DNA of 64,000 nt from Escherichia coli (lineage in GTDB: Bacteria; Pseudomonadota; Gammaproteobacteria; Enterobacterales; Enterobacteriaceae): NCBI RefSeq assembly GCF_030013595.1, contig NZ_CP122769.1. One strand, 5' to 3'. The translations under genes were made by a program, and so were the position numbers. Positions 1 through 64,000 of the stretch are shown one piece after another. How positions within the stretch are numbered: the stretch's first letter is position 1; the number at the start of each line of letters is the position of its first letter. The notes beneath the pieces are model-generated. The model did no database searches, had not been told where the DNA came from, and saw nothing but the letters and a program-made list of their open reading frames with translations.

Positions 1-1206
1 CGTAATCCACAGGAAGTATCTGAACACTTTATTAAACTCGTTCATGCTCGAATTGCTGAAGTGTCTGGCTGGAAGTATATATTCGAAAGAATACCTGCTT
101 TCAAAGACGCTTGTGCAAAAGCCCCGAGCCAGGTTCCTTGCCCGTTTACTGGCGCAGGGAAATCGAAGTTTCGTTTCCGACAAAAAGACCTTTATACCGG
201 ATGTGCGATCCATAATGACTTTCCGGTAAATGAGTTTTGCGACGGAATTGATGTTCTGGCGAAATATTATGAATTAAGTAAAACGCAGACTTGCAAAAAG
301 ATTCTCTCAGATTTTTTCGGGATGGATCTGCATGCTCCGTTAACTGACGCCGACATTGAAAATGAACGACGCTATAAATCAGCAGTTCGTGCCACAGAAA
401 CTCTTGACCGAGAGGAAGTGGCAAAGCGAATGCGAAAACTTGATGTGATGTATCACTATACCGGTGAAATCAAGCCTAATACTCCTGTTGCTTTGTACCT
501 CCGTAATCGTGGGATCTCCCGCTTACTGAGTCACTTACCAAAGGATTTAGGCTTTAATAACCGGATCTACTATTGGGATAAAGATAAGCAGAAATCGATT
601 ATCTATCCGGGAATGATTGCGATCTATCGTGACACCCGAGGTCGGCCTCTGACTATTCATAGAACATACGTAGACAAAAATGGTGATAAGGCACCTGTAG
701 AAAATCCAAAGCTGATGATGAAGCCTCCTGCCGATATGACAGGTGGCTCAATTCAGTTGTTTGACCCTCACTATGATTCAGGTAGTTCGACCTGGACACT
801 GGGAGTGGCTGAAGGGATCGAGAACGCGCTTTCTGTTGTAGAAGCGACTTCAACACCATGCTGGGCAGCCAGCTCCGCATGGTGCCTTGAAAACGTTACT
901 GTTCCTGATTTTTTACTGCCTCCGCCGGATGTAAAATCTATAAACTTTTATATCTGGGCGGATAAGGATATTGCTAACTCACAAGGCACTCGTGCCGGTA
1001 TTGAAGCTGCTCAGCGACTTCAAAGCCGCATGGTTGAGTTTTTGGCTAAACGATATCCCGCATCAAAGCTGACAATTGAAGTCTTCGAACCAGCACAAGA
1101 TATTCCTGATGGGAAAAAGGGTATCGACTGGAACGATGTTCTCCAGTTAACAGGGCAGGATGGATTCCCGATTCACTGGGCTCCTGAATGTCTTAATCAG
1201 CTGTAA
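1..1206 (+). CDS. DNA primase-like protein (degenerate P4-type zinc-ribbon + Toprim), probably 5'-partial
   Basis: Reading frame is open from base 1; the ORF-track start at 61 is GTG with no SD. Motif CPFTGAGKSKFRF resembles the primase zinc-ribbon with Cys replaced; YIWADKDIANSQG is Toprim-like. Confidence 0.45.
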   Translation, partial: RNPQEVSEHFIKLVHARIAEVSGWKYIFERIPAFKDACAKAPSQVPCPFTGAGKSKFRFRQKDLYTGCAIHNDFPVNEFCDGIDVLAKYYELSKTQTCKKILSDFFGMDLHAPLTDADIENERRYKSAVRATETLDREEVAKRMRKLDVMYHYTGEIKPNTPVALYLRNRGISRLLSHLPKDLGFNNRIYYWDKDKQKSIIYPGMIAIYRDTRGRPLTIHRTYVDKNGDKAPVENPKLMMKPPADMTGGSIQLFDPHYDSGSSTWTLGVAEGIENALSVVEATSTPCWAASSAWCLENVTVPDFLLPPPDVKSINFYIWADKDIANSQGTRAGIEAAQRLQSRMVEFLAKRYPASKLTIEVFEPAQDIPDGKKGIDWNDVLQLTGQDGFPIHWAPECLNQL

Positions 1207-43611: not shown

Positions 43612-43667
43612 GGGTGATGATGCCAACTTACTGATTTAGTGTATGATGGTGTTTTTGAGGTGCTCCA

Positions 43668-43943
43668 GTGGCTTCTGTTTCTATCAGCTGTCCCTCCTGT
43701 TCAGCTACTGACGGGGTGGTGCGTAACGGCAAAAGCACCGCCGGACATCAGCGCTATCTCTGCTCTCACTGCCGTAAAACATGGCAACTGCAGTTCACTT
43801 ACACCGCTTCTCAACCCGGTACGCACCAGAAAATCATTGATATGGCCATGAATGGCGTTGGATGCCGGGCAACCGCCCGCATTATGGGCGTTGGCCTCAA
43901 CACGATTTTCCGCCATTTAAAAAACTCAGGCCGCAGTCGGTAA
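43668..43943 (+). CDS. insA: IS1 InsA
   Basis: 91 aa, [23 protein letters not shown]. Confidence 0.95.
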
Positions 43944-44365
43944 CCTCGCGCATACAGCCGGGCAGTGACGTCATCGTCTGCGCGGAAATGGACGAACAGT
44001 GGGGATACGTCGGGGCTAAATCGCGCCAGCGCTGGCTGTTTTACGCGTATGACAGGCTCCGGAAGACGGTTGTTGCGCACGTATTCGGTGAACGCACTAT
44101 GGCGACGCTGGGGCGTCTTATGAGCCTGCTGTCACCCTTTGACGTGGTGATATGGATGACGGATGGCTGGCCGCTGTATGAATCCCGCCTGAAGGGAAAG
44201 CTGCACGTAATCAGCAAGCGATATACGCAGCGAATTGAGCGGCATAACCTGAATCTGAGGCAGCACCTGGCACGGCTGGGACGGAAGTCGCTGTCGTTCT
44301 CAAAATCGGTGGAGCTGCATGACAAAGTCATCGGGCATTATCTGAACATAAAACACTATCAATAA
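43862..44365 (+). CDS. insB: IS1 InsB (expressed as InsAB' by -1 frameshift)
   Basis: 167-aa ORF overlapping insA in the -1 frame. Confidence 0.9.
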
Positions 44366-44523
44366 GTTGGAGTCATTACCGGCAGCATCAACTACATCGC
44401 AAGCAGTAAGAGTAAGTGACGATGCCACAGCAAGACACAATAAAGAAAATCTGTTTTTGAACATATTTGAGACCTTTTATAAAAATAAAATAACAGGAGA
44501 ATTGTATCATTAACAGTCTAGTT

Positions 44524-54529: not shown

Positions 54530-56355
54530 ATGCGGCTCAGAAAATTAAAACTGAAAAACTTCAGAGGCTACAGAAACTCTACTGAAATCATTATTGATGA
54601 AAGCATGACGGGTATTGTCGGTCGTAATGACTTTGGGAAATCAACGCTTCTGGAAGCGCTGGCTATTTTTTTTGAAACAGAAGGAATGAAGGCTGACAAG
54701 AATGACATGAACTGTTTCAGCCTAAGAGAAGGGGACGGCCGTTTTGAAATAGCCTGTGAATTTGATGACCTGCCCGATTTTATCATGATCGACGACAGGG
54801 TGCAGACCACGCTCGCCTCAGAACATCTGCTGAATGAGGACGGCAATTTTGAAATCGTCAAAACGTTTAAAGCAACGACCTCAGGAAAACCGGAGCAGAC
54901 CTGCATCCGCTGCATCCACCCGGATGAGGAGCCCCTGAGAAATTTACTGGGCATGAAAATTTCTGAGCTCAAGGCGGTGGGAAAAGAAGTTGAAAAAAAT
55001 GTGGCGGATAAACGCACTGCATCGTTATGGCGTCAGGCCATCAGGGAAGCCGCAGCCCCCTATACCTGTTCGGAAATTATGCTGGATGTCGATAAAGAGT
55101 TCGGAACCGACACAAAATCATTATGGGGTAAGATCCTCGATTTGCTGCCCACGTATGCGATTTTCAAAGCCGACAGGGAAAGCAGCGACGGGGATTCCGA
55201 AGCTAAAAACCCCTTACAGCAGGCCGTAAAAGACGCTCAGGCTGCGCTGCAGGACAAAATTACAGCGCTGGAAAATGAGATTCAGGACAGCGTCCTGGAT
55301 GTCGCACAGAGAACGCTGGATAAATTACGTGAAATGGCCCCCGAACTCGCCAGTGAACTGACTCCACGATTTAAGGAGAAACCCAAGTGGACCTTCAATT
55401 TCACCCTGGACGGGGAAAATGGCATCCCCATCAATAAGCGCGGCAGCGGGATAAGGAGGCTTATCCTGTTGAATTTTTTCGGGCTGAGGCTGAAAAGAAT
55501 GTCGCGGGGACGCCCAGAAATGTGATTTATGCCATAGAGGAGCCTGAAACGTCACAGCATCCGAACTATCAGATGATGCTGATGAAAGCGTTACTGGCAC
55601 TGGCAGGCCAGCCGCACCGTCAGATTATCGTCACCACCCATGTCCCGGCGCTGGCCGGATTAATCCCTGTCGAAGGCGTACGTTATGTTACCCGAAATGA
55701 GGCGGGTGAACCCGTAGTAAAAATGCCGGATGACGCAGTGCTGAAGGAAGCCACTGAAAGCCTGGGGGTGCTGCCAGAGACCGGTATGGAAAGGGCGCAG
55801 GGGATTGTTCTGGTAGAGGGAAAGTCGGATGTTACTTTCCTGAGGCATGCGGCCAGTTCATTAAAACAGTCAGGTGCGCTGCCAGCCTCTCTGGAGGACG
55901 TGAAAATAGTGCCAGTCCTCATAGGAGGGTGTGGTAGCGTCAAACACTGGGTTACATTGAATCTGGCCAAAGATCTGGGGCTTCCCTGGTGCGTATTTCT
56001 GGACTCCGATATTGGGGGAGACCCTGCACAGGTTCTGTCCATCCAGAAGCGTAAAAAAGAAGTAGAGGAGGCCGGTAAGGTATTTTTCGCTACGCGCAAA
56101 CGTGAGATAGAAAACTATCTGTGCCCGGATCTTATCGAGGAAATTACTGGTGTAGCCGTCACGTTTACGGACACCTGTGACGCTAAAAAAATAATCGGCC
56201 GGGCTGTGGGAATGAAACCCGATAATGTACTAGATAAATTCTGGCCTCAGATGACATCAGAAAGAATCATCTCAAGATCAACCTATCATGACGGAACGCA
56301 GGAGAGAAGCGAGCTGGTTGAGATCCTGAGCGACATTGTATCCATGACGAGATAA
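54530..56355 (+). pseudogene. OLD-family ATP-dependent nuclease (AAA ATPase + Toprim), apparent frameshift
   Basis: Walker A GRNDFGKST; downstream frame has IEEPETSQHP and Toprim VLVEGKSDV / VFLDSD; frames switch at the T6C run 55474-55480. Confidence 0.65.
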
Positions 56356-56453
56356 TGTATTAAATAAGCATCTCAGGTGCATATATTCCGGTCCTCAACA
56401 AAGGACCGGAGTACAGAGTAGTAAAAACCCGAAATTAAGGTAATGACTCCAAC

Positions 56454-56957
56454 TTATTGATAGTGTTTTATGTTCAGATAATGCCCGATGACTTTGTCAT
56501 GCAGCTCCACCGATTTTGAGAACGACAGCGACTTCCGTCCCAGCCGTGCCAGGTGCTGCCTCAGATTCAGGTTATGCCGCTCAATTCGCTGCGTATATCG
56601 CTTGCTGATTACGTGCAGCTTTCCCTTCAGGCGGGATTCATACAGCGGCCAGCCATCCGTCATCCATATCACCACGTCAAAGGGTGACAGCAGGCTCATA
56701 AGACGCCCCAGCGTCGCCATAGTGCGTTCACCGAATACGTGCGCAACAACCGTCTTCCGGAGCCTGTCATACGCGTAAAACAGCCAGCGCTGGCGCGATT
56801 TAGCCCCGACATAGCCCCACTGTTCGTCCATTTCCGCGCAGACGATGACGTCACTGCCCGGCTGTATGCGCGAGGTTACCGACTGCGGCCTGAGTTTTTT
56901 AAGTGACGTAAAATCGTGTTGAGGCCAACGCCCATAATGCGGGCGGTTGCCCGGCAT
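56454..56957 (-). CDS. insB: IS1 InsB
   Basis: Near-identical to copy 1 InsB. Confidence 0.9.
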
Positions 56958-57151
56958 CCAACGCCATTCATGGCCATATCAATGATTTTCTGGTGCGTAC
57001 CGGGTTGAGAAGCGGTGTAAGTGAACTGCAGTTGCCATGTTTTACGGCAGTGAGAGCAGAGATAGCGCTGATGTCCGGCGGTGCTTTTGCCGTTACGCAC
57101 CACCCCGTCAGTAGCTGAACAGGAGGGACAGCTGATAGAAACAGAAGCCAC
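56876..57151 (-). CDS. insA: IS1 InsA
   Basis: Near-identical to copy 1 InsA (one substitution F to L). Confidence 0.95.
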
Positions 57152-57299
57152 TGGAGCACCTCAAAAACACCATCATACACTAAATCAGTAAGTTGGCAGC
57201 ATCACCGAAATTAATCGGGTTTGAATTGTATAAAGATTAACCGACTCCCGCGCCCAGGAACGATGTAAAATCACGCTTGTCGTGACATTTCTACAATGT

Positions 57300-57650
57300 T
57301 TACTTTTGACTATCAAGCCATTTATTCATCTGCTCAATTTCACCTTTTTGAGCTTTAATGATGTCCTGCGCGAGCTTTCTCATTTTCGGATCTTTTCCGT
57401 ATTTGAGCTCGGTCTCAGCCATTGCTATTGCCCCTTCATGGTGCGCTACCATGCCTTTCGCAAAAGCCTTGTCGGGATCGGACTCATTTACGGCAGCCAT
57501 CATTTTGTCATGCATGTCTTTCATGCCAGCCATATATTCCTGTGACGAAGCCGAGGTAGACATATCAGTCATTTTCATTTCTGAATGTTCTGCTGAAATC
57601 GCTGGCAGGGATAACATTAATACTGCAAATAAAGTGTTTCTGGCTTTCAT
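57300..57650 (-). CDS. DUF305-like periplasmic Met/His-rich protein
   Basis: Signal peptide; MVAHHEGAIAMAE..LAQDIIKAQKGEIEQMNKWL resembles DUF305. Confidence 0.6.
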   Translation of the reverse strand: MKARNTLFAVLMLSLPAISAEHSEMKMTDMSTSASSQEYMAGMKDMHDKMMAAVNESDPDKAFAKGMVAHHEGAIAMAETELKYGKDPKMRKLAQDIIKAQKGEIEQMNKWLDSQK

Positions 57651-57797
57651 AAAAAATATCCTTTTAGCGTTGATGCCCGTTAACTGTAGCAGAATCTGAT
57701 AAAAATGCCCCCTGTAGGGGGCAAAGATGTTGCCATATATCCGGTTACGGAAAAATCTATCAAGGAAATAAGGACAGCACAGATACTTCCCTCGCCG

Positions 57798-58229
57798 TCA
57801 GCCTGCACTGAGCATGCGACGATGCGCTTCGGCCATGGCCTGATGTGGGCCAGACTGACCGTTATTCATAAATTCATGGGCAACTGCAGCTCTTTCATGC
57901 TCATTCATTGCCGCTAATGACTTCGACGGCCCGGTAGGGGAAACGGTCTGACTTCCCATCATCCTCTGATGACTTTCCACCATTTTCTGGTGCGCATCCG
58001 CCGACCCGTTCGTCATGGTTTCATGAGCAATAATGGCCTGTTCATGCTGGTCCATACCGGTCATACGAGGAGCAGTCCCCTGGATCCCGACAGGAGCCGC
58101 AGCAGACTGCATCTGGTGAGCAGGAGCCTGTGCATTGTTGACGCGATCATGGATATTCACGGTTTCAGTGGCCCAGGCCGATGAAATTAAACCAAAGCCC
58201 AGCAAAGATGCTAATACGATATTTTTCAT
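57798..58229 (-). CDS. silE: SilE periplasmic silver-binding protein
   Basis: 143 aa from MKNIVLASLLGF..; His/Met-rich repeats; the ORF-track start at 58346 is an upstream extension. Confidence 0.9.
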   Translation of the reverse strand: MKNIVLASLLGFGLISSAWATETVNIHDRVNNAQAPAHQMQSAAAPVGIQGTAPRMTGMDQHEQAIIAHETMTNGSADAHQKMVESHQRMMGSQTVSPTGPSKSLAAMNEHERAAVAHEFMNNGQSGPHQAMAEAHRRMLSAG

Positions 58230-58448
58230 GATAACTCTCCATTTCTGAATTAGTGATGTCCGGGGAAGTACAACCGGTGTTTTCAGTTCCATAACTGAAA
58301 CAAGTTCGGCAGCGTTTATTTCTCCGGAAGAGGGCTGGATATTCATTTCCTGGCGTACTCTGACGCCGGGTATTGATGAAGCAATCCAGCCTTCCTGATA
58401 AGTTGCACTAATTATATCGAATGGCTTCTGTTTGCTGCATGACAGGCT

Positions 58449-58466
58449 AATGACATCTTTGTCATT
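58449..58466 (-). promoter_or_regulatory. SilR/CusR-type box upstream of silE
   Basis: aATGACAtctTTGTCATt palindrome. Confidence 0.55.
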
Positions 58467-58479
58467 TACATCTTTATTT

Positions 58480-59955
58480 TCAGCATTGGGTTTCCGGGAT
58501 CATTTTCTCCAGTCTGGGCACGGATAAGATAAAACGCGTGGAGCGTACGTCTGATTCCACCTGCACTCTTCCGTGATGTGCTTCCACGATTGACTTCACA
58601 ATCGCAAGGCCGATGCCGCTGCCTTCTCCTTTGCGTTGTCTGGATGGATCCACCCGATAAAAACGGTCAAACAGCCTTGATAAATGTTCTTCAGGGATCG
58701 GTTTCCCCGGATTTTCAATCACAAGGTCAAAAAAGCTCTCCTGCTCTCTTATTGAGACGGTGATTGCCTGTCCCTCCGGGGTATAACGCAGGGCATTGGA
58801 TAACAGATTATTGATCGCCCTTCTGAACATTTGTGGATCTCCCTCAACCAGGCAGGGCATCCCGTTAAATTTGAGCGTGATATTGCGTTCTTCGGCCCAG
58901 GCTTCGAAAAACTCGAAGACTTTCATGACTTCCGCTCTGAGGTCAAACATGACCCTGTCAGGTATCAGCTGATTATTATCTGCCTGTGCCAGGAACAGCA
59001 TATCGCTGACCATTTTGGTCATCCGGTTATACTCTTCAAGACTGGAATAGAGGACATCCTCAAGTTCCCTCTGTGTTCGATCCTGACTCAGTGCGATTTC
59101 AGTCTGCGTCACCAGATTGGTGATGGGCGTTCTGATCTCATGCGCGATATCGGCAGAGAAATTGGCCTGGCGGGTAAAGACATCCTCAATCTTTCCAATC
59201 ATATGATTGAACGAGATAACCAGTTGCTCCAGCTCAATGGGAACGCGTGTCGGTTCCAGTCGCGCATCAAGATTCTCGGAGGTGATGTTTTTAATGGCAT
59301 TGCTGACATTACGAAGGGGCAGGTGCCCCTGACGGACAGCGATTCGAATGATCAGAACAATCAACAGGCTTATCACGACGGCAATCGCAATCAGGTTCTT
59401 TTTCAGCGCATCGAGGTAATGGAGATGGAAATTAATGGATAGGCCAGTCAGCATGACATAGTTCTGCTGTTTGCCCTGAAATATCGCCTGACCAGAGGAG
59501 GCGATAATCCTGTATGTTTCCATCTTCATTTCGGACCCGGTATCCATCGGTCCCGCAGGATCCTCCACCGTCCAGAGAAAGACATCCCGTGCGCGGCTGT
59601 GCTCGCTAAAATCTGCTGAATTCACTGCCGGGCGTAGTGCCGCCCCCTGAGCTGAGCTAAAGAGCACTTCACCCCTGGGATTGAGGAGCAAAAGGGCAAC
59701 GTTGCGGTAGCTGGCAATTGATTCCTTTATTTTGCTTATTTTTTTATCATCCGGATCCACCGGGGACTGCAGTATACGGTTCAGTGTGGTGCTGATTTGT
59801 TGAAGATCGCTGACATCCTGCTCGGCAAAATGATTTTCAACAGAATGCAGCATAAACCAGGTGAAGGCGATAAAAGCCAGTATCGTGGACAGGCTGATAA
59901 AAAAGGTCAGCCGCAGAGCGAGTGAGAAAGGGCGTCTGGAAGGTTTGCTATGCAT
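58480..59955 (-). CDS. silS: SilS sensor histidine kinase (CusS-like)
   Basis: Two TM segments, H-box [10 protein letters not shown], ATPase motifs. Confidence 0.9.
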
Positions 59956-60628
59956 CCGGGACCTCCAGCATGTAGCCCACGCCCCGGACTGTCTGGATCA
60001 GCTTTGTCCCGTAATCGTTGTCTATTTTAGCGCGGAGTCGCTTTACTGCGACATCGATCGCATTAGTGTCGCTGTCAAAATTCATGTCCCAGACCTGAGA
60101 GGCAATCAGGGAGCGGGGAAGAACCTCTCCCTGATGGCGAATGAAGAATTCCAGCAGGCTGAACTCTTTACTGGTGAGTACAATGCGGTTTCCGGCGCGA
60201 CTGACTTTTCTGGATACGAGATCAATCGAGAGGTCAGCCACCTTAAACTGGCTTTCCGTGATCATCGTGTTTCCCCGCCTCAGAAGGGTTCTCACCCGGG
60301 CGAGCAGTTCGGCAAACGCAAAGGGTTTAACCAGATAATCGTCCGCACCCAGTTCCAGTCCTTTGACCCTGTGTTCGATCGTGCCGAGGGCTGTCAGCAG
60401 TAAGACCGGCATACCCTTTCCGGCAGTGCGCAGCATGCGGATGATATCCCAGCCGTTCACATCAGGTAGCATGATATCCAGAATGACTAAATCATACTCG
60501 GCTGTCATGGCGAGATGATATCCGGTAAGACCATTATCAGCGTGATCCACTACGAACCCTGCCTCTGTAAGCCCTTTGCTGAGATATTCACCTGTTTTAA
60601 TTTCGTCTTCGACGATCAATATTTTCAT
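59948..60628 (-). CDS. silR: SilR response regulator (CusR-like, OmpR family)
   Basis: MKILIVEDE receiver domain, winged-helix C-terminus. Confidence 0.9.
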
Positions 60629-60695
60629 CTTGCTCCCCGGCTGGCTGCTAATGTCATTCTATTGCGCCCACGATCGTTATCAACGGATTACAGCA

Positions 60696-60716
60696 AAAAT
60701 GACAACATTGTCATTA
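60696..60716 (+). promoter_or_regulatory. SilR/CusR box in silRS-silCFB divergent promoter
   Basis: aaaATGACAAcaTTGTCATta. Confidence 0.65.
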
Positions 60717-60817
60717 TCCTGTCACCCGGCAAACAGAGAGCGTTAGGTAAAGTACCCCTATCAATACTCTGGACTTCGTTTGAACCATTTACCAGGTCTG
60801 CCTGTACGAGAAGCGTT

Positions 60818-62203
60818 ATGTTCAAATTAAAATTACTCAGCATCAGTACCATATTCATCCTGGCTGGTTGTGTTTCTCTGGCACCTGAATATCAGCGTCC
60901 GCCAGCTCCGGTTCCCCAGCAGTTTTCATTGTCTAAAAACAGTCTGACGCCTGCGGTAAACAGCTATCAGGATACGGGCTGGCGAAACTTTTTTGTCGAT
61001 CCCCAGGTCAGCAGGCTGATCGGTGAAGCCCTGAATAATAACCGTGATTTGAGAATGGCTGCCCTGAAGGTTGAAGAGGCCCGGGCCCAGTTCAACGTCA
61101 CGGATGCAGATCGTTATCCCCAACTGAATGCCTCATCCGGGATCACATACAACGGTGGTCTGAAAGGTGACAAGCCGACCACACAGGAGTACGACGCGGG
61201 TCTGGAGCTCAGCTATGAGCTCGATTTTTTTGGCAAACTTAAGAACATGAGTGAGGCTGATCGCCAGAACTACTTTGCCAGCGAAGAAGCCCGTCGTGCC
61301 GTACACATCCTGCTGGTCTCCAACGTTTCACAGAGCTATTTCAGCCAGCAACTGGCGTACGAACAACTCCGTATTGCGCGGGAAACGCTGAAAAATTATG
61401 AACAGTCCTATGCTTTCGTTGAGCAACAGCTCGTGACCGGGAGTACGAACGTTCTGGCACTTGAACAGGCGAGAGGACAAATCGAAAGTACCCGCGCCGA
61501 AATAGCCAAACGAGAAGGCGATCTGGCTCAGGCAAACAATGCCCTGCAACTGGTGCTGGGAACGTACCGCGCACTTCCGTCAGAAAAAGGGATGAAAGGC
61601 GGGGAGATCGCACCAGTAAAATTGCCACCAAATCTATCTTCACAAATTTTGCTGCAGCGACCGGATATTATGGAAGCGGAATATCAGCTGAAAGCGGCTG
61701 ATGCCAATATTGGCGCAGCGCGAGCGGCCTTTTTCCCCTCCATTACCCTGACCAGTGGTCTTTCCGCAAGCAGTACGGAGCTGTCAAGCCTGTTTACGTC
61801 AGGAAGTGGAATGTGGAATTTTATCCCTAAAATTGAAATTCCTATTTTTAATGCTGGCAGGAATAAAGCCAATCTGAAGCTGGCTGAAATTCGCCAGCAA
61901 CAATCGGTGGTTAATTACGAACAAAAAATTCAGTCAGCCTTTAAGGATGTTTCCGACACGCTTGCGCTGCGCGACAGCCTTAGCCAGCAACTTGAGTCAC
62001 AGCAGCGTTATCTTGATTCACTTCAGATAACTCTCCAGCGTGCCAGAGGATTATATGCAAGTGGTGCTGTCAGTTACATCGAAGTGCTGGATGCAGAACG
62101 TTCCCTCTTCGCTACGCAGCAAACCATTCTCGATCTTACCTATTCCCGACAGGTTAACGAAATTAATCTGTTTACCGCGCTGGGTGGCGGTTGGGTAGAG
62201 TAA
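60818..62203 (+). CDS. silC: SilC outer-membrane efflux channel (CusC-like)
   Basis: 461 aa from MFKLKLLSISTIFILAGC lipoprotein signal; the ORF-track start at 60515 is an extension. Confidence 0.9.
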   Translation: MFKLKLLSISTIFILAGCVSLAPEYQRPPAPVPQQFSLSKNSLTPAVNSYQDTGWRNFFVDPQVSRLIGEALNNNRDLRMAALKVEEARAQFNVTDADRYPQLNASSGITYNGGLKGDKPTTQEYDAGLELSYELDFFGKLKNMSEADRQNYFASEEARRAVHILLVSNVSQSYFSQQLAYEQLRIARETLKNYEQSYAFVEQQLVTGSTNVLALEQARGQIESTRAEIAKREGDLAQANNALQLVLGTYRALPSEKGMKGGEIAPVKLPPNLSSQILLQRPDIMEAEYQLKAADANIGAARAAFFPSITLTSGLSASSTELSSLFTSGSGMWNFIPKIEIPIFNAGRNKANLKLAEIRQQQSVVNYEQKIQSAFKDVSDTLALRDSLSQQLESQQRYLDSLQITLQRARGLYASGAVSYIEVLDAERSLFATQQTILDLTYSRQVNEINLFTALGGGWVE

Positions 62204-62230
62204 ATTTATTTAATTAATCAGGAAATTAAA

Positions 62231-62584
62231 ATGCGTAATTCACTTAAAGCCGTTTTATTTGGTGCCTTCTCTGTCATGTTTTCTGCCGGTCTTCATGCTG
62301 AAACACATCAGCATGGCGATATGAATACTGCCAGTGATGCTTCGGTACAGCAAGTTATCAAGGGCACCGGTGTCGTTAAAGACATTGATATGAATACTAA
62401 GAAAATCACCATTTCGCATGAAGCAATTCCAGCGGTGGGCTGGCCTGCAATGACCATGCGCTTTACTTTTGTTAATGCAGACGATGCTATTAATGCCCTG
62501 AAAACAGGCAACCATGTCGATTTCTCGTTTATTCAGCAGGGCAATATCTCCTTACTCAAAAGCATTAACGTGACGCAGTCCTGA
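62231..62584 (+). CDS. silF: SilF periplasmic metallochaperone (CusF-like)
   Basis: 117 aa with signal peptide and MTMRF motif. Confidence 0.85.
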   Translation: MRNSLKAVLFGAFSVMFSAGLHAETHQHGDMNTASDASVQQVIKGTGVVKDIDMNTKKITISHEAIPAVGWPAMTMRFTFVNADDAINALKTGNHVDFSFIQQGNISLLKSINVTQS

Positions 62585-62697
62585 TTGGCTGTCCGGAGCG
62601 ATTACATCCTGTGCGCCTGTACATTCACATAGGTATATGTGTGAGTTAACCGTCAGGCGCATATGCCAGGTGTTTTGATTTTTTAGCGGAAAATTGT

Positions 62698-63990
62698 ATG
62701 GCTTCTTTAAAGATAAAATATGCTGCAATAATTATCAGCAGCCTCATAGCAGGGGGGCTGATATCGGTTACTGCCTGGCAGTATGTAAACTCATCACAAA
62801 AAACAGTACAAACCGAACAAAAGGCACCGGAGCGAAAGGTACTTTTCTGGTATGACCCGATGAAACCGGATACCAAATTTGATAAACCCGGAAAATCGCC
62901 CTTTATGGATATGGACCTGGTGCCAAAATATGCTGATGACAGTGGCGATAAAAGCAGTGGCGGGATCCGTATCGACCCAACCCAGGTTCAGAATCTGGGA
63001 TTAAAAACGCAAAAAGTCACGCGAGGAATGCTGAATTATTCTCAGACAATCCCGGCTAATGTCAGCTATAACGAGTATCAGTTTGTTATTGTGCAGGCGC
63101 GTTCTGACGGGTTTGTCGAAAAAGTCTACCCCATGACGATTGGCGATCATGTGAAGAAGGGGACGCCACTTATCGATATTACCATTCCGGACTGGGTGGA
63201 AGCACAGAGTGAATTCCTTCTGTTATCCAGCACCGGTGGTACTTCCACGCAAATTAAAGGCGTTCTGGAACGGCTTCGCCTGGCAGGTATGCCGGAAGAG
63301 GATATTCAGAGACTGCGTTCTACCCGGAGCATTCAGACCCGTTTTACCATTAAAGCACCTATTGATGGTGTCATTACTGCATTTGACCTGCGCACCGGCA
63401 TGAATATTTCGAAAGATAAGGTGGTGGCTCAGATTCAGGGAATGGACCCGGTCTGGATCAGCGCTGCAGTGCCAGAATCTATTGCCTATCTGCTGAAAGA
63501 TACGTCGCAGTTTGAAATTTCGGTACCGGCTTATCCGGATAAAACATTCCATGTCGAAAAATGGAATATTCTTCCCAGCGTGGATCAGACAACCCGTACG
63601 CTTCAGGTCCGTCTCCAGGTTTCTAATAAGGATGAGTTTCTCAAGCCGGGCATGAATGCCTATCTGAAACTGAATACCAGAAGCCAGGAGATGCTGCTGA
63701 TACCAAGCCAGGCCGTTATCGATACCGGCAAAGAACAGCGCGTGATTACTGTTGATGATGAAGGCAAGTTTGTGCCGAAACAGATCCACGTTCTGCATGA
63801 GTCACAGCAACAGTCCGGCATCGGCTCCGGCCTGAATGAAGGCGATACCGTGGTGGTCAGTGGCCTGTTCCTCATTGACTCTGAAGCCAATATTACGGGC
63901 GCACTGGAACGTATGCGCCACCCTGAAAAAACAGAAAGCAGTATGCCAGCAATGTCTGACCAGCCTGTAAATATGCATTCAGGGCACTGA
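62698..63990 (+). CDS. silB: SilB membrane fusion protein (CusB-like)
   Basis: 430 aa; N-terminal TM anchor. Confidence 0.9.
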   Translation: MASLKIKYAAIIISSLIAGGLISVTAWQYVNSSQKTVQTEQKAPERKVLFWYDPMKPDTKFDKPGKSPFMDMDLVPKYADDSGDKSSGGIRIDPTQVQNLGLKTQKVTRGMLNYSQTIPANVSYNEYQFVIVQARSDGFVEKVYPMTIGDHVKKGTPLIDITIPDWVEAQSEFLLLSSTGGTSTQIKGVLERLRLAGMPEEDIQRLRSTRSIQTRFTIKAPIDGVITAFDLRTGMNISKDKVVAQIQGMDPVWISAAVPESIAYLLKDTSQFEISVPAYPDKTFHVEKWNILPSVDQTTRTLQVRLQVSNKDEFLKPGMNAYLKLNTRSQEMLLIPSQAVIDTGKEQRVITVDDEGKFVPKQIHVLHESQQQSGIGSGLNEGDTVVVSGLFLIDSEANITGALERMRHPEKTESSMPAMSDQPVNMHSGH

Positions 63991-64000
63991 GGAGACGACG

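Follow-up and report, generated by a model that had tools for sequence, protein, structure and literature searches.

Positions 57300-63990 of the 64,000-nucleotide stretch of Escherichia coli DNA analyzed here (the window) comprise the 5' half of sil, the classical determinant of silver/copper resistance borne by plasmids, within a CHASRI island that is located on a Tn7-like element of an IncHI2 plasmid. The joint account, in which the sil/CHASRI island of an IncHI2 plasmid uses SilR-driven promoters at two CusR-type boxes and its products clear metal from the periplasm, is very probably correct. Since its genes, operon layout, regulator, and type of box have all been described before, the region is scientifically nothing new.

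Gene content and plasmid context

The features of the region are listed in Table 1. By their open reading frames, the minus strand encodes silE, silS, and silR and the plus strand encodes silC, silF, and silB, with silR and silC divergent, and all genes score above the curated cutoffs of the NCBIfam and Pfam models. The original prediction of a DUF305-like gene, silE, silRS, and silCFB was correct in content and position, as judged from the open reading frames, the Pfam and NCBIfam matches, and 100% identity to known plasmids. The true start of silE is the ATG at 58229, which is preceded by a GGAGAG Shine-Dalgarno sequence; an in-frame ATG further upstream at 58346 is not conserved in the other alleles compared. 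The silS product features the CusS sensor, HAMP, HisKA, and HATPase domains of Pfam, and silC is 100% identical to the reference silC.

Table 1. Coordinates of the sil genes and associated elements in the window
Feature	Positions	Strand	Description	Evidence
DUF305/CopM-family gene	57300-57650	-	Met/His-rich protein, predicted periplasmic, 116 aa	Pfam DUF305, NCBIfam CopM
Terminator-like hairpin, intrinsic	57706-57723	-	TGCCCCCTACAGGGGGCA then TTTTTAT; between silE stop and DUF305 gene	
silE	57798-58229	-	periplasmic silver-binding protein, 143 aa	NCBIfam SilE equivalog, 287.6 bits (cutoff 200)
silE promoter -10, predicted	58411-58416	-	TATAAT	same distance from box as PsilC, PcusC, and PpcoE hexamers
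silE box, SilR/CusR-type	58449-58466		AATGACATCTTTGTCATT	one mismatch to AATGACAANNTTGTCATT
silS	58480-59955	-	Cu(I)/Ag(I) sensor histidine kinase, 491 aa	NCBIfam PRK09835, 904 bits
silR	59948-60628	-	OmpR/PhoB-family response regulator, 226 aa	NCBIfam PRK09836, 494 bits (cutoff 420)
silR promoter, sigma-70-like	60656-60683	-	-35 TTGATA, 16-nt spacer, -10 TAGAAT	promoter scan, 10/12
silR/silC box, SilR/CusR-type	60698-60715		AATGACAACATTGTCATT, in divergent region	perfect 8-2-8 palindrome
silC	60818-62203	+	outer-membrane channel of Cu/Ag RND efflux pump, 461 aa	NCBIfam PRK09837, 956 bits
silF	62231-62584	+	CusF-type periplasmic metallochaperone, 117 aa	Pfam CusF_Ec, NCBIfam PRK09838
silB	62698-63990	+	periplasmic adaptor of RND pump, 430 aa	NCBIfam PRK09783, 846 bits

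IncHI2 plasmids such as NZ_CP117034.1 show 100% DNA identity to the stretch, including annotated silE, silS, silR, silC, silF, and silB, and the window is collinear with NZ_CP117034.1 over at least 57 kb. The gene order of that plasmid is tnsABCD, sil (including silA, DUF411 = silG, and silP), and then pcoGFABCDRSE, and through this identity the region would share the tnsABCD-sil-pcoGFABCDRSE order of CHASRI. The window ends at the silB/silA junction, 10 nt past the silB stop codon; in an annotated plasmid locus (L001), where silE is labelled as such, the first position of silA is 24794, equivalent to 64001 in window coordinates. Based on the plasmids that are identical over the stretch, the cluster is expected to run on into silA, silG, silP, and pco. 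The same genes, order, and orientation are found in the sil operon of pMG101 from Salmonella (silE, silRS, silCFBA-ORF105/silG-silP), and the differences are only allelic, with protein identities of 96.7-100% to the AMRFinder sil references. The metal-inducible silver/copper resistance phenotype is known only from work on pMG101 and from sil of Enterobacter and Klebsiella (PMC4356207, PMC5008109). In contrast to CHASRI, an IS1 element (56439-57206), which features a target-site duplication, is inserted here between the transposon ATPase gene and the DUF305 gene.

The SilR/CusR-type boxes and their promoters

The ATGACA-N4-TGTCAT palindrome has just two exact occurrences in the 64 kb (58450-58465 and 60699-60714). 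The original prediction gave these two sites correctly, however, its limits of 58449-58466 and 60696-60716 include flanking palindromic or A-rich bases. With one mismatch allowed the expected count of the palindrome is 0.17, and none of 100 shuffles contained two matches. The CusR-box consensus reportedly stems from the work of Yamamoto and Ishihama in 2005; relative to its 18-nt core, AAAATGACAA-NN-TTGTCATTTT, the silR/silC box has no mismatches and the silE box has one, which sits in the inner arm. Both palindromes correspond to the CusR box between cusR and cusC of E. coli, where the box has been kept while the rest of the spacer diverged. The exact box was found in all eight sil or cus loci fetched, and it is invariant in all of the sil alleles examined, which are themselves 85-100% identical in the region. 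At cus, the existence and location of the box are established, and the one box bound by CusR serves both divergent operons (PMC10920338; bioRxiv 10.1101/2020.08.17.251918).

The promoters PsilE, PsilC, PcusC, and PpcoE have a common layout, in which the box is succeeded by a third TGTCA half-site at a distance of 11 bp and then by CAGA and a -10 hexamer. A promoter alignment shows that the spacing from the box to the -10 hexamer is identical in all four, and the predicted transcription starts place the center of the box near -53.5. On the silC side, the elements after the box are a third half-site, CTGTCAC (60719-60725), CAAACAGA (60730-60737), and a -10-like TAAAGT (60748-60753). The E. coli cusRS/cusCFBA system has the same divergent layout, with the box AAAATGACAA-NN-TTGTCATT, and CTGTCAC, CAGAG, and the -10-like TAAAGT are present in both systems; in the silR direction, the -10 hexamer is invariant relative to E. 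coli cusR (columns 42-47 of the intergenic alignment). However, cus lacks silE, silG, silP, and the DUF305 gene, and it has a single box, whereas sil has a second box for silE. The silE box is located 14 bp past the silS stop codon, with approximately 228 bp between it and the silE ATG further downstream, and a third half-site, CTGTCAT (58445-58439), comes after it on the minus strand. The silE -10 hexamer is invariant in 5 alleles, as is a block of approximately 70 nt formed by the box and the approximately 60 nt downstream of it in 5 silS-silE alleles, while the 5'UTR varies. From these positions, transcription of silE is predicted to start near 58404, which would give a 5'UTR of approximately 175 nt. 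A leader of this length is unusually long; the 5'UTR of pcoE, the paralogue of silE, is long too, at approximately 128 nt. The copper-inducible pcoE promoter features a degenerate box, GGTGACAAAATTGTCATC, with three mismatches to the consensus, followed by CAGTCAC, AAACAGAG, and TATAAT at a silE-like spacing, and it is located after pcoS, whereas the silE promoter is located after silS.

The sil determinant has been described as three transcription units in which silE has its own promoter and is strongly induced by silver (PMC5008109), and the three-promoter organization found here is the same as the published one. In the proposed mechanism, SilS would sense periplasmic Ag(I) or Cu(I) and phosphorylate SilR, and SilR-P would then occupy the inverted repeat AATGACAA-N2-TTGTCATT at two sites. 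The copy in the divergent region would turn on silCFBA(GP) rightwards from an apparently activator-dependent PsilC, which has a -10-like hexamer and the box center noted above with no recognizable -35, and it would also raise silRS leftwards as positive autoregulation. The copy just past the silS stop codon would power the separate silE promoter through the same architecture. SilE as a metal sponge, SilF as a chaperone, and SilCBA as an RND pump would then rid the periplasm of metal. The earlier reading of SilR autoregulation and a metal-inducible silE gains support at the level of sequence from the match to the CusR box, the SilR/CusR identity, and the promoter layout, together with the literature. 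The third half-site additionally suggests that SilR/CusR could contact a direct repeat on the activated side besides the palindrome, a proposal that is put forward only tentatively.

It is also conceivable, though rather unlikely, that the boxes are worked mainly by the chromosomal CusR (or HprR) of the host and not by SilR, which would make silE a pcoE-like client of the host cus regulon. The match of the boxes to the E. coli CusR box fits this explanation, as do the 87% identity between SilR and E. coli CusR, which is complete across residues 160-199 in the C-terminal DNA-binding domain, and the promoter layout common to silE and its paralogue pcoE, the latter of which is under the control of chromosomal cusRS according to a statement in PMC5008109 that cites Munson 2000. 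Since CusR or HprR of the host could also act at these sites, sequence does not distinguish a "SilR box" from a "CusR box". However, an intact silRS adjoins both boxes within the cluster, silS point mutations alone derepress the system and its resistance (PMC4356207), and the silver resistance of pMG101 is intact despite deletion of cusSRCFBA (PMC4356207, Table 2). Cross-talk from the host likely adds to control by SilR without replacing it. SilS carries A102 and P213, which are wild type when checked against the derepressing substitutions of PMC4356207, and therefore the cluster may, as far as these two residues indicate, be of the inducible or "cryptic" type of that study and not derepressed. 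The same study found silE to be essential for resistance.

The DUF305/CopM-family gene and the silS-silE interval

The DUF305-like gene had been predicted to precede silE, which is correct in window coordinates, however, in the direction of transcription it is downstream of silE and behind a terminator. The terminator scan revealed a 7-bp stem with 6 GC pairs, and the GC stem and the T-run are kept in 5 alleles despite variable flanks. The protein matches Pfam DUF305 with 75.2 bits (cutoff 27, E = 7.5e-21) and the NCBIfam CopM model with 119.2 bits (cutoff 90). CopM binds Cu(I)/Ag(I) and is located in the periplasm or secreted. The mature part is close to PDB entries 7VW0, 7VW1, and 7VW2 (E = 5e-53), each a "DUF305 domain-containing protein", and is related to CopM of Synechocystis PCC 6803 (5FEJ, E = 9e-19), which places all of them in the same family. 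By inspection, the N-terminus, MKARNTLFAVLMLSLPAISA, is signal-like, and the 14 Met and 4 His among the 116 residues agree with the earlier description of the protein as Met/His-rich. The match covers profile positions 61-151 of 151, so that the protein corresponds to half a DUF305 domain, the C-terminal part, and therefore dimerization is presumably needed to form the helical bundle.

This gene would add another Cu(I)/Ag(I)-binding protein to the periplasm, and it may be expressed either when some transcripts pass the silE terminator or from its own weak promoter. One possible, still doubtful reading is that it is an unrecognized accessory member of the SilR regulon, induced together with silE when transcripts partly read through the conserved silE terminator, whose product joins SilE and SilF as a third protein that buffers or chaperones Ag(I)/Cu(I) in the periplasm. 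The searchable literature describes no role for this protein in the sil clusters of enterobacteria. A search of 72,556 plasmid records gave more than 2,800 that match the sil region, and the DUF305 gene is missing in approximately 1,100 of approximately 2,840 sil-bearing plasmids; it is therefore not an obligatory part of the system. These approximately 1,100 Klebsiella plasmids would fit a gene that is unrelated cargo next to silE with no metal-handling role, as would the terminator that separates it from silE, the box scan, which found no CusR-type box upstream of it, and its absence from the 19 genes named for CHASRI (PMC4824010). However, such cargo status is improbable, since the gene occupies the same position and orientation beside silE in approximately 1,700 plasmids of Klebsiella, Escherichia, Enterobacter, Citrobacter, and Salmonella, including alleles that are only approximately 82% identical, its Met/His-rich product passes the curated CopM-family cutoff and appears from its sequence to be exported, and a later figure legend includes it, with the gene drawn within CHASRI of Salmonella genomes (PMC8568146).

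On the other side of silE, the terminator scan found no terminator between silS and silE and therefore read-through transcription is possible, however, the idea that the palindrome, being so close to the silS stop codon, is a chance or structural repeat (e.g., within a hairpin at the silS 3' end) and that silE depends entirely on transcripts reading through from the silR promoter is highly improbable given an 18-bp match to the CusR box that is far beyond chance, a third half-site, CAGA, and -10 hexamer spaced as in three other Cu/Ag-responsive promoters, a block that is invariant next to a variable UTR, and the separate silver-induced silE promoter reported in PMC5008109.

Biological and practical relevance

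The region is of practical relevance. The IncHI2 sil/pco island is a widespread metal-resistance determinant in livestock and clinical bacteria, and it co-travels with antibiotic-resistance plasmids.

Gene content of the sil stretch

All of the genes named in the original prediction were recovered in the ORF list and by curated family models (see the table). The statement that the DUF305 gene precedes silE holds in window coordinates only, since by direction of transcription the DUF305 gene lies downstream of silE. An extended 182-aa silE reading frame, opening at an upstream ATG at 58346, was considered and rejected, as this ATG and frame are not kept in other alleles, the annotated 143-aa protein fits the SilE model end to end, and the longer product would bury the signal peptide. 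The substitutions A102T and P213H, known from the literature to derepress SilS, are both absent from this SilS.

Genes of the sil stretch and positions of the third half-site in four promoters (window coordinates, except L004, the E. coli chromosomal cus locus, and L001, the locus on the identical IncHI2 plasmid NZ_CP117034.1)
Feature	Position	Strand	Support
DUF305/CopM-family gene	57300-57650	-	Pfam DUF305 E = 7.5e-21; NCBIfam CopM 119 bits, cutoff 90
silE	57798-58229	-	SilE equivalog 288 bits, cutoff 200
silS	58480-59955	-	CusS sensor, HAMP, HisKA, HATPase domains
silR	59948-60628	-	copper/silver response regulator, 494 bits
silC	60818-62203	+	NCBIfam PRK09837, 956 bits
silF	62231-62584	+	CusF-type chaperone
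silB	62698-63990	+	NCBIfam PRK09783, 846 bits
Third half-site, silE promoter	58439-58445		
Third half-site, silC promoter	60719-60725		
Third half-site, cusC promoter	L004 about 911-917		
Third half-site, pcoE promoter	L001 39272-39278		

The two boxes and a common promoter architecture

The palindrome ATGACA-N4-TGTCAT occurs exactly twice in the 64-kb window, at 58450-58465 upstream of silE and at 60699-60714 between silR and silC, which agrees with the two sites originally predicted. With one mismatch allowed 0.17 matches are expected, and two matches were found in 0 of 100 shuffles; a match with three mismatches at 2826-2843 is at chance level. The silR/silC copy fits the longer form AATGACAA-NN-TTGTCATT at every position, and the silE copy departs from it at one. 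The exact palindrome is present in the expected place or places in each sil or cus locus fetched. Further CusR-type boxes, at up to three mismatches, were sought ahead of the DUF305 gene, silF, silB, silP and pcoA/F/G and none was found; within the island only the pcoE site was added.

Alignment of the silR-silC spacers from five sil alleles with their chromosomal counterpart between cusR and cusC in E. coli revealed several islands of identity. One is AAAATGACAA-NN-TTGTCATT-N3-CTGTCAC; CAGAG and GTAAAGT are others, as is ATTCTA on the opposite side of the box, which corresponds to the -10 TAGAAT of the leftward promoter; the remaining spacer sequence has diverged. The cusR-cusC site of E. coli is the sole known CusR-binding region, serving both divergent cus operons (PMC10920338). 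The site is also reported from ChIP-chip in bioRxiv 10.1101/2020.08.17.251918, and both sources cite Yamamoto & Ishihama 2005. At the protein level SilR shares 87% identity with CusR, with no differences at residues 160-199 in the C-terminal DNA-binding domain, so the two regulators would be expected to share DNA specificity. Host CusR or HprR may also use the boxes, and these regulators and SilR are indistinguishable by sequence at these sites; however, resistance is derepressed by silS point mutations alone and pMG101 resistance is intact after cus gene deletion (PMC4356207).

The promoters of silE, silC, E. coli cusC and the upstream region of pcoE feature one architecture, in which the box, a third half-site, AA(A/T)CAGA and the -10 hexamer follow in the same order with identical spacing. 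The -10 hexamer is TATAAT for silE and pcoE, whereas it is TAAAGT for silC and cusC. The third half-site, C(T/A)GTCA(C/T), starts 11 bp past the right half-site in all four promoters. This places it one helical turn beyond the right arm of the palindrome, as a direct repeat on the activated side, and no description of it was found in the searchable literature. None of the four aligned promoters has a -35-like hexamer at the usual distance from the -10, an absence that would be typical of activator-dependent promoters. If transcription starts about 7 nt past the -10, the box is centered near -53.5 in all four, with predicted starts near 58404 for silE and near 60760 for silC. The leftward silR promoter features a good -35 (TTGATA), a 16-nt spacer and the -10 TAGAAT, with a start predicted near 60649 (minus strand) and the box centered near -57.

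Across five alleles the silS-silE spacers have an overall identity of 85–100%. A segment of some 80 nt that opens at the silS stop codon, spans the box and closes just beyond TATAAT is nearly invariant, the next ~120 nt are variable, and the final 50 nt before the silE ATG are conserved. Both the conservation of this block and the architecture shared with the other promoters contradict the alternative in which the palindrome after silS is not part of a promoter. Published work describes the sil genes as three transcription units, with a separate and strongly Ag-induced silE promoter (PMC5008109), and the same paper places pcoE under cusRS dependence. Together with the comparative evidence, these reports support the predicted SilR autoregulation and metal-inducible silE.

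The predicted silE 5'UTR (58229-58404, minus strand) is unusually long at about 175 nt; that of pcoE is about 128 nt. The minimum free energy of the leader (179 nt folded) has a z of -2.9 relative to shuffles. The covariation term in the 5-allele alignment is unfavorable (+2.36), and in the second allele group the broken pairs are numerous, with only 4 compensated. A structured regulatory RNA is thus unsupported, as covariation lends no support to a conserved fold despite the z value. An Rfam scan of 56000-64000 returned no RNA family at gathering score.

The DUF305 gene and the transposon edge

The DUF305 gene encodes a 116-aa product with a signal-like N-terminus, 14 Met and 4 His. Its match covers the C-terminal half of the DUF305 profile only, and the product clears the curated CopM-family cutoff. 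The mature protein is a close match to the structures solved as 7VW0, 7VW1 and 7VW2 and is related to Synechocystis CopM. It is read as an optional accessory periplasmic protein with putative Cu(I)/Ag(I) binding; no functional study of the enterobacterial sil-linked protein or of PDB 7VW0-2 was found in the literature. Between this gene and silE lies a conserved, GC-rich hairpin with a trailing T-run (57723-57706, minus strand), and the gene could be expressed by read-through of this terminator or from its own weak promoter. One figure of CHASRI, the published sil and pco island, includes the gene (PMC8568146), and the 19 named genes of CHASRI do not include it (PMC4824010).

The DUF305 gene adjoins silE in ~1,700 of ~2,840 sil-bearing plasmids, with allele identity down to 82%, and is missing from ~1,100, mostly from Klebsiella pneumoniae. 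This divergence and absence suggest recombination or replacement at the island edge. Comparison of window 57208-57800 with plasmid hits H31-H43 places the DUF305 gene in two allele groups, 95–100% and 82–83% identical; the adjacent silE-silS segment is far less divergent, at least 99% identical in most plasmids.

An IS1 of 768 bp (56439-57206, with minus-strand insA/insB) has a direct duplication of 8-9 bp, (C)GAAATTAA, at its two ends and is therefore a simple insertion between an ATPase gene and the DUF305 gene that leaves the sil sequence intact. This IS1 and an inverted copy at about 43612-44380 bracket the module of tnsA, tnsB, tnsC and a TnsD-family gene with its neighbors. The sil-proximal copy has 5 clustered differences (56811-56909) from its counterpart in NZ_CP117034.1, and IS1-mediated inversion or gene conversion between the two copies is possible. 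The AAA/OLD-type ATPase gene of the Tn7-like element (54530-56355) is present as two overlapping ORFs, whereas NZ_CP117034.1 has a single 608-aa CDS. The split is caused by a 1-bp deletion near 55480 in a T-run (T6 here, T7 in NZ_CP117034.1), which represents a genuine frameshift or else a sequencing error in the homopolymer.

Plasmid origin and continuation of the cluster

Window 57208-64000 matches 2,882 plasmid records in all, and several IncHI2 plasmids, found in Salmonella, E. coli and Raoultella isolates of pig, human and vegetable origin, share it with 100% identity. One of these, NZ_CP117034.1, is collinear with the first and last 25 kb of the window, and the offsets agree window-wide. 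Positions 1-25000 are IncHI2 backbone, for which matching records annotate a PP2C phosphatase, an InaA-family kinase, a toprim protein, a tyrosine recombinase, IS21 and a TerY-C domain protein. Related plasmids carry mcr-1.1 inserted in this region; it is not shown under the match in the best-matching records.

In NZ_CP117034.1 tnsA, tnsB, tnsC and a gene of the TnsD family come ahead of the cluster, and silB is followed by silA, DUF411 (silG), silP, DUF2933, pcoG, pcoF and pcoABCDRSE. The window ends 10 nt past the silB stop codon, where silA starts in the identical plasmid (window 64001), so continuation of the cluster past the window end, as originally predicted, is strongly implied. The prediction is accurate and its interpretation agrees with published accounts of sil, cus and pco; the stretch represents a textbook island of metal resistance carried by a common type of plasmid.
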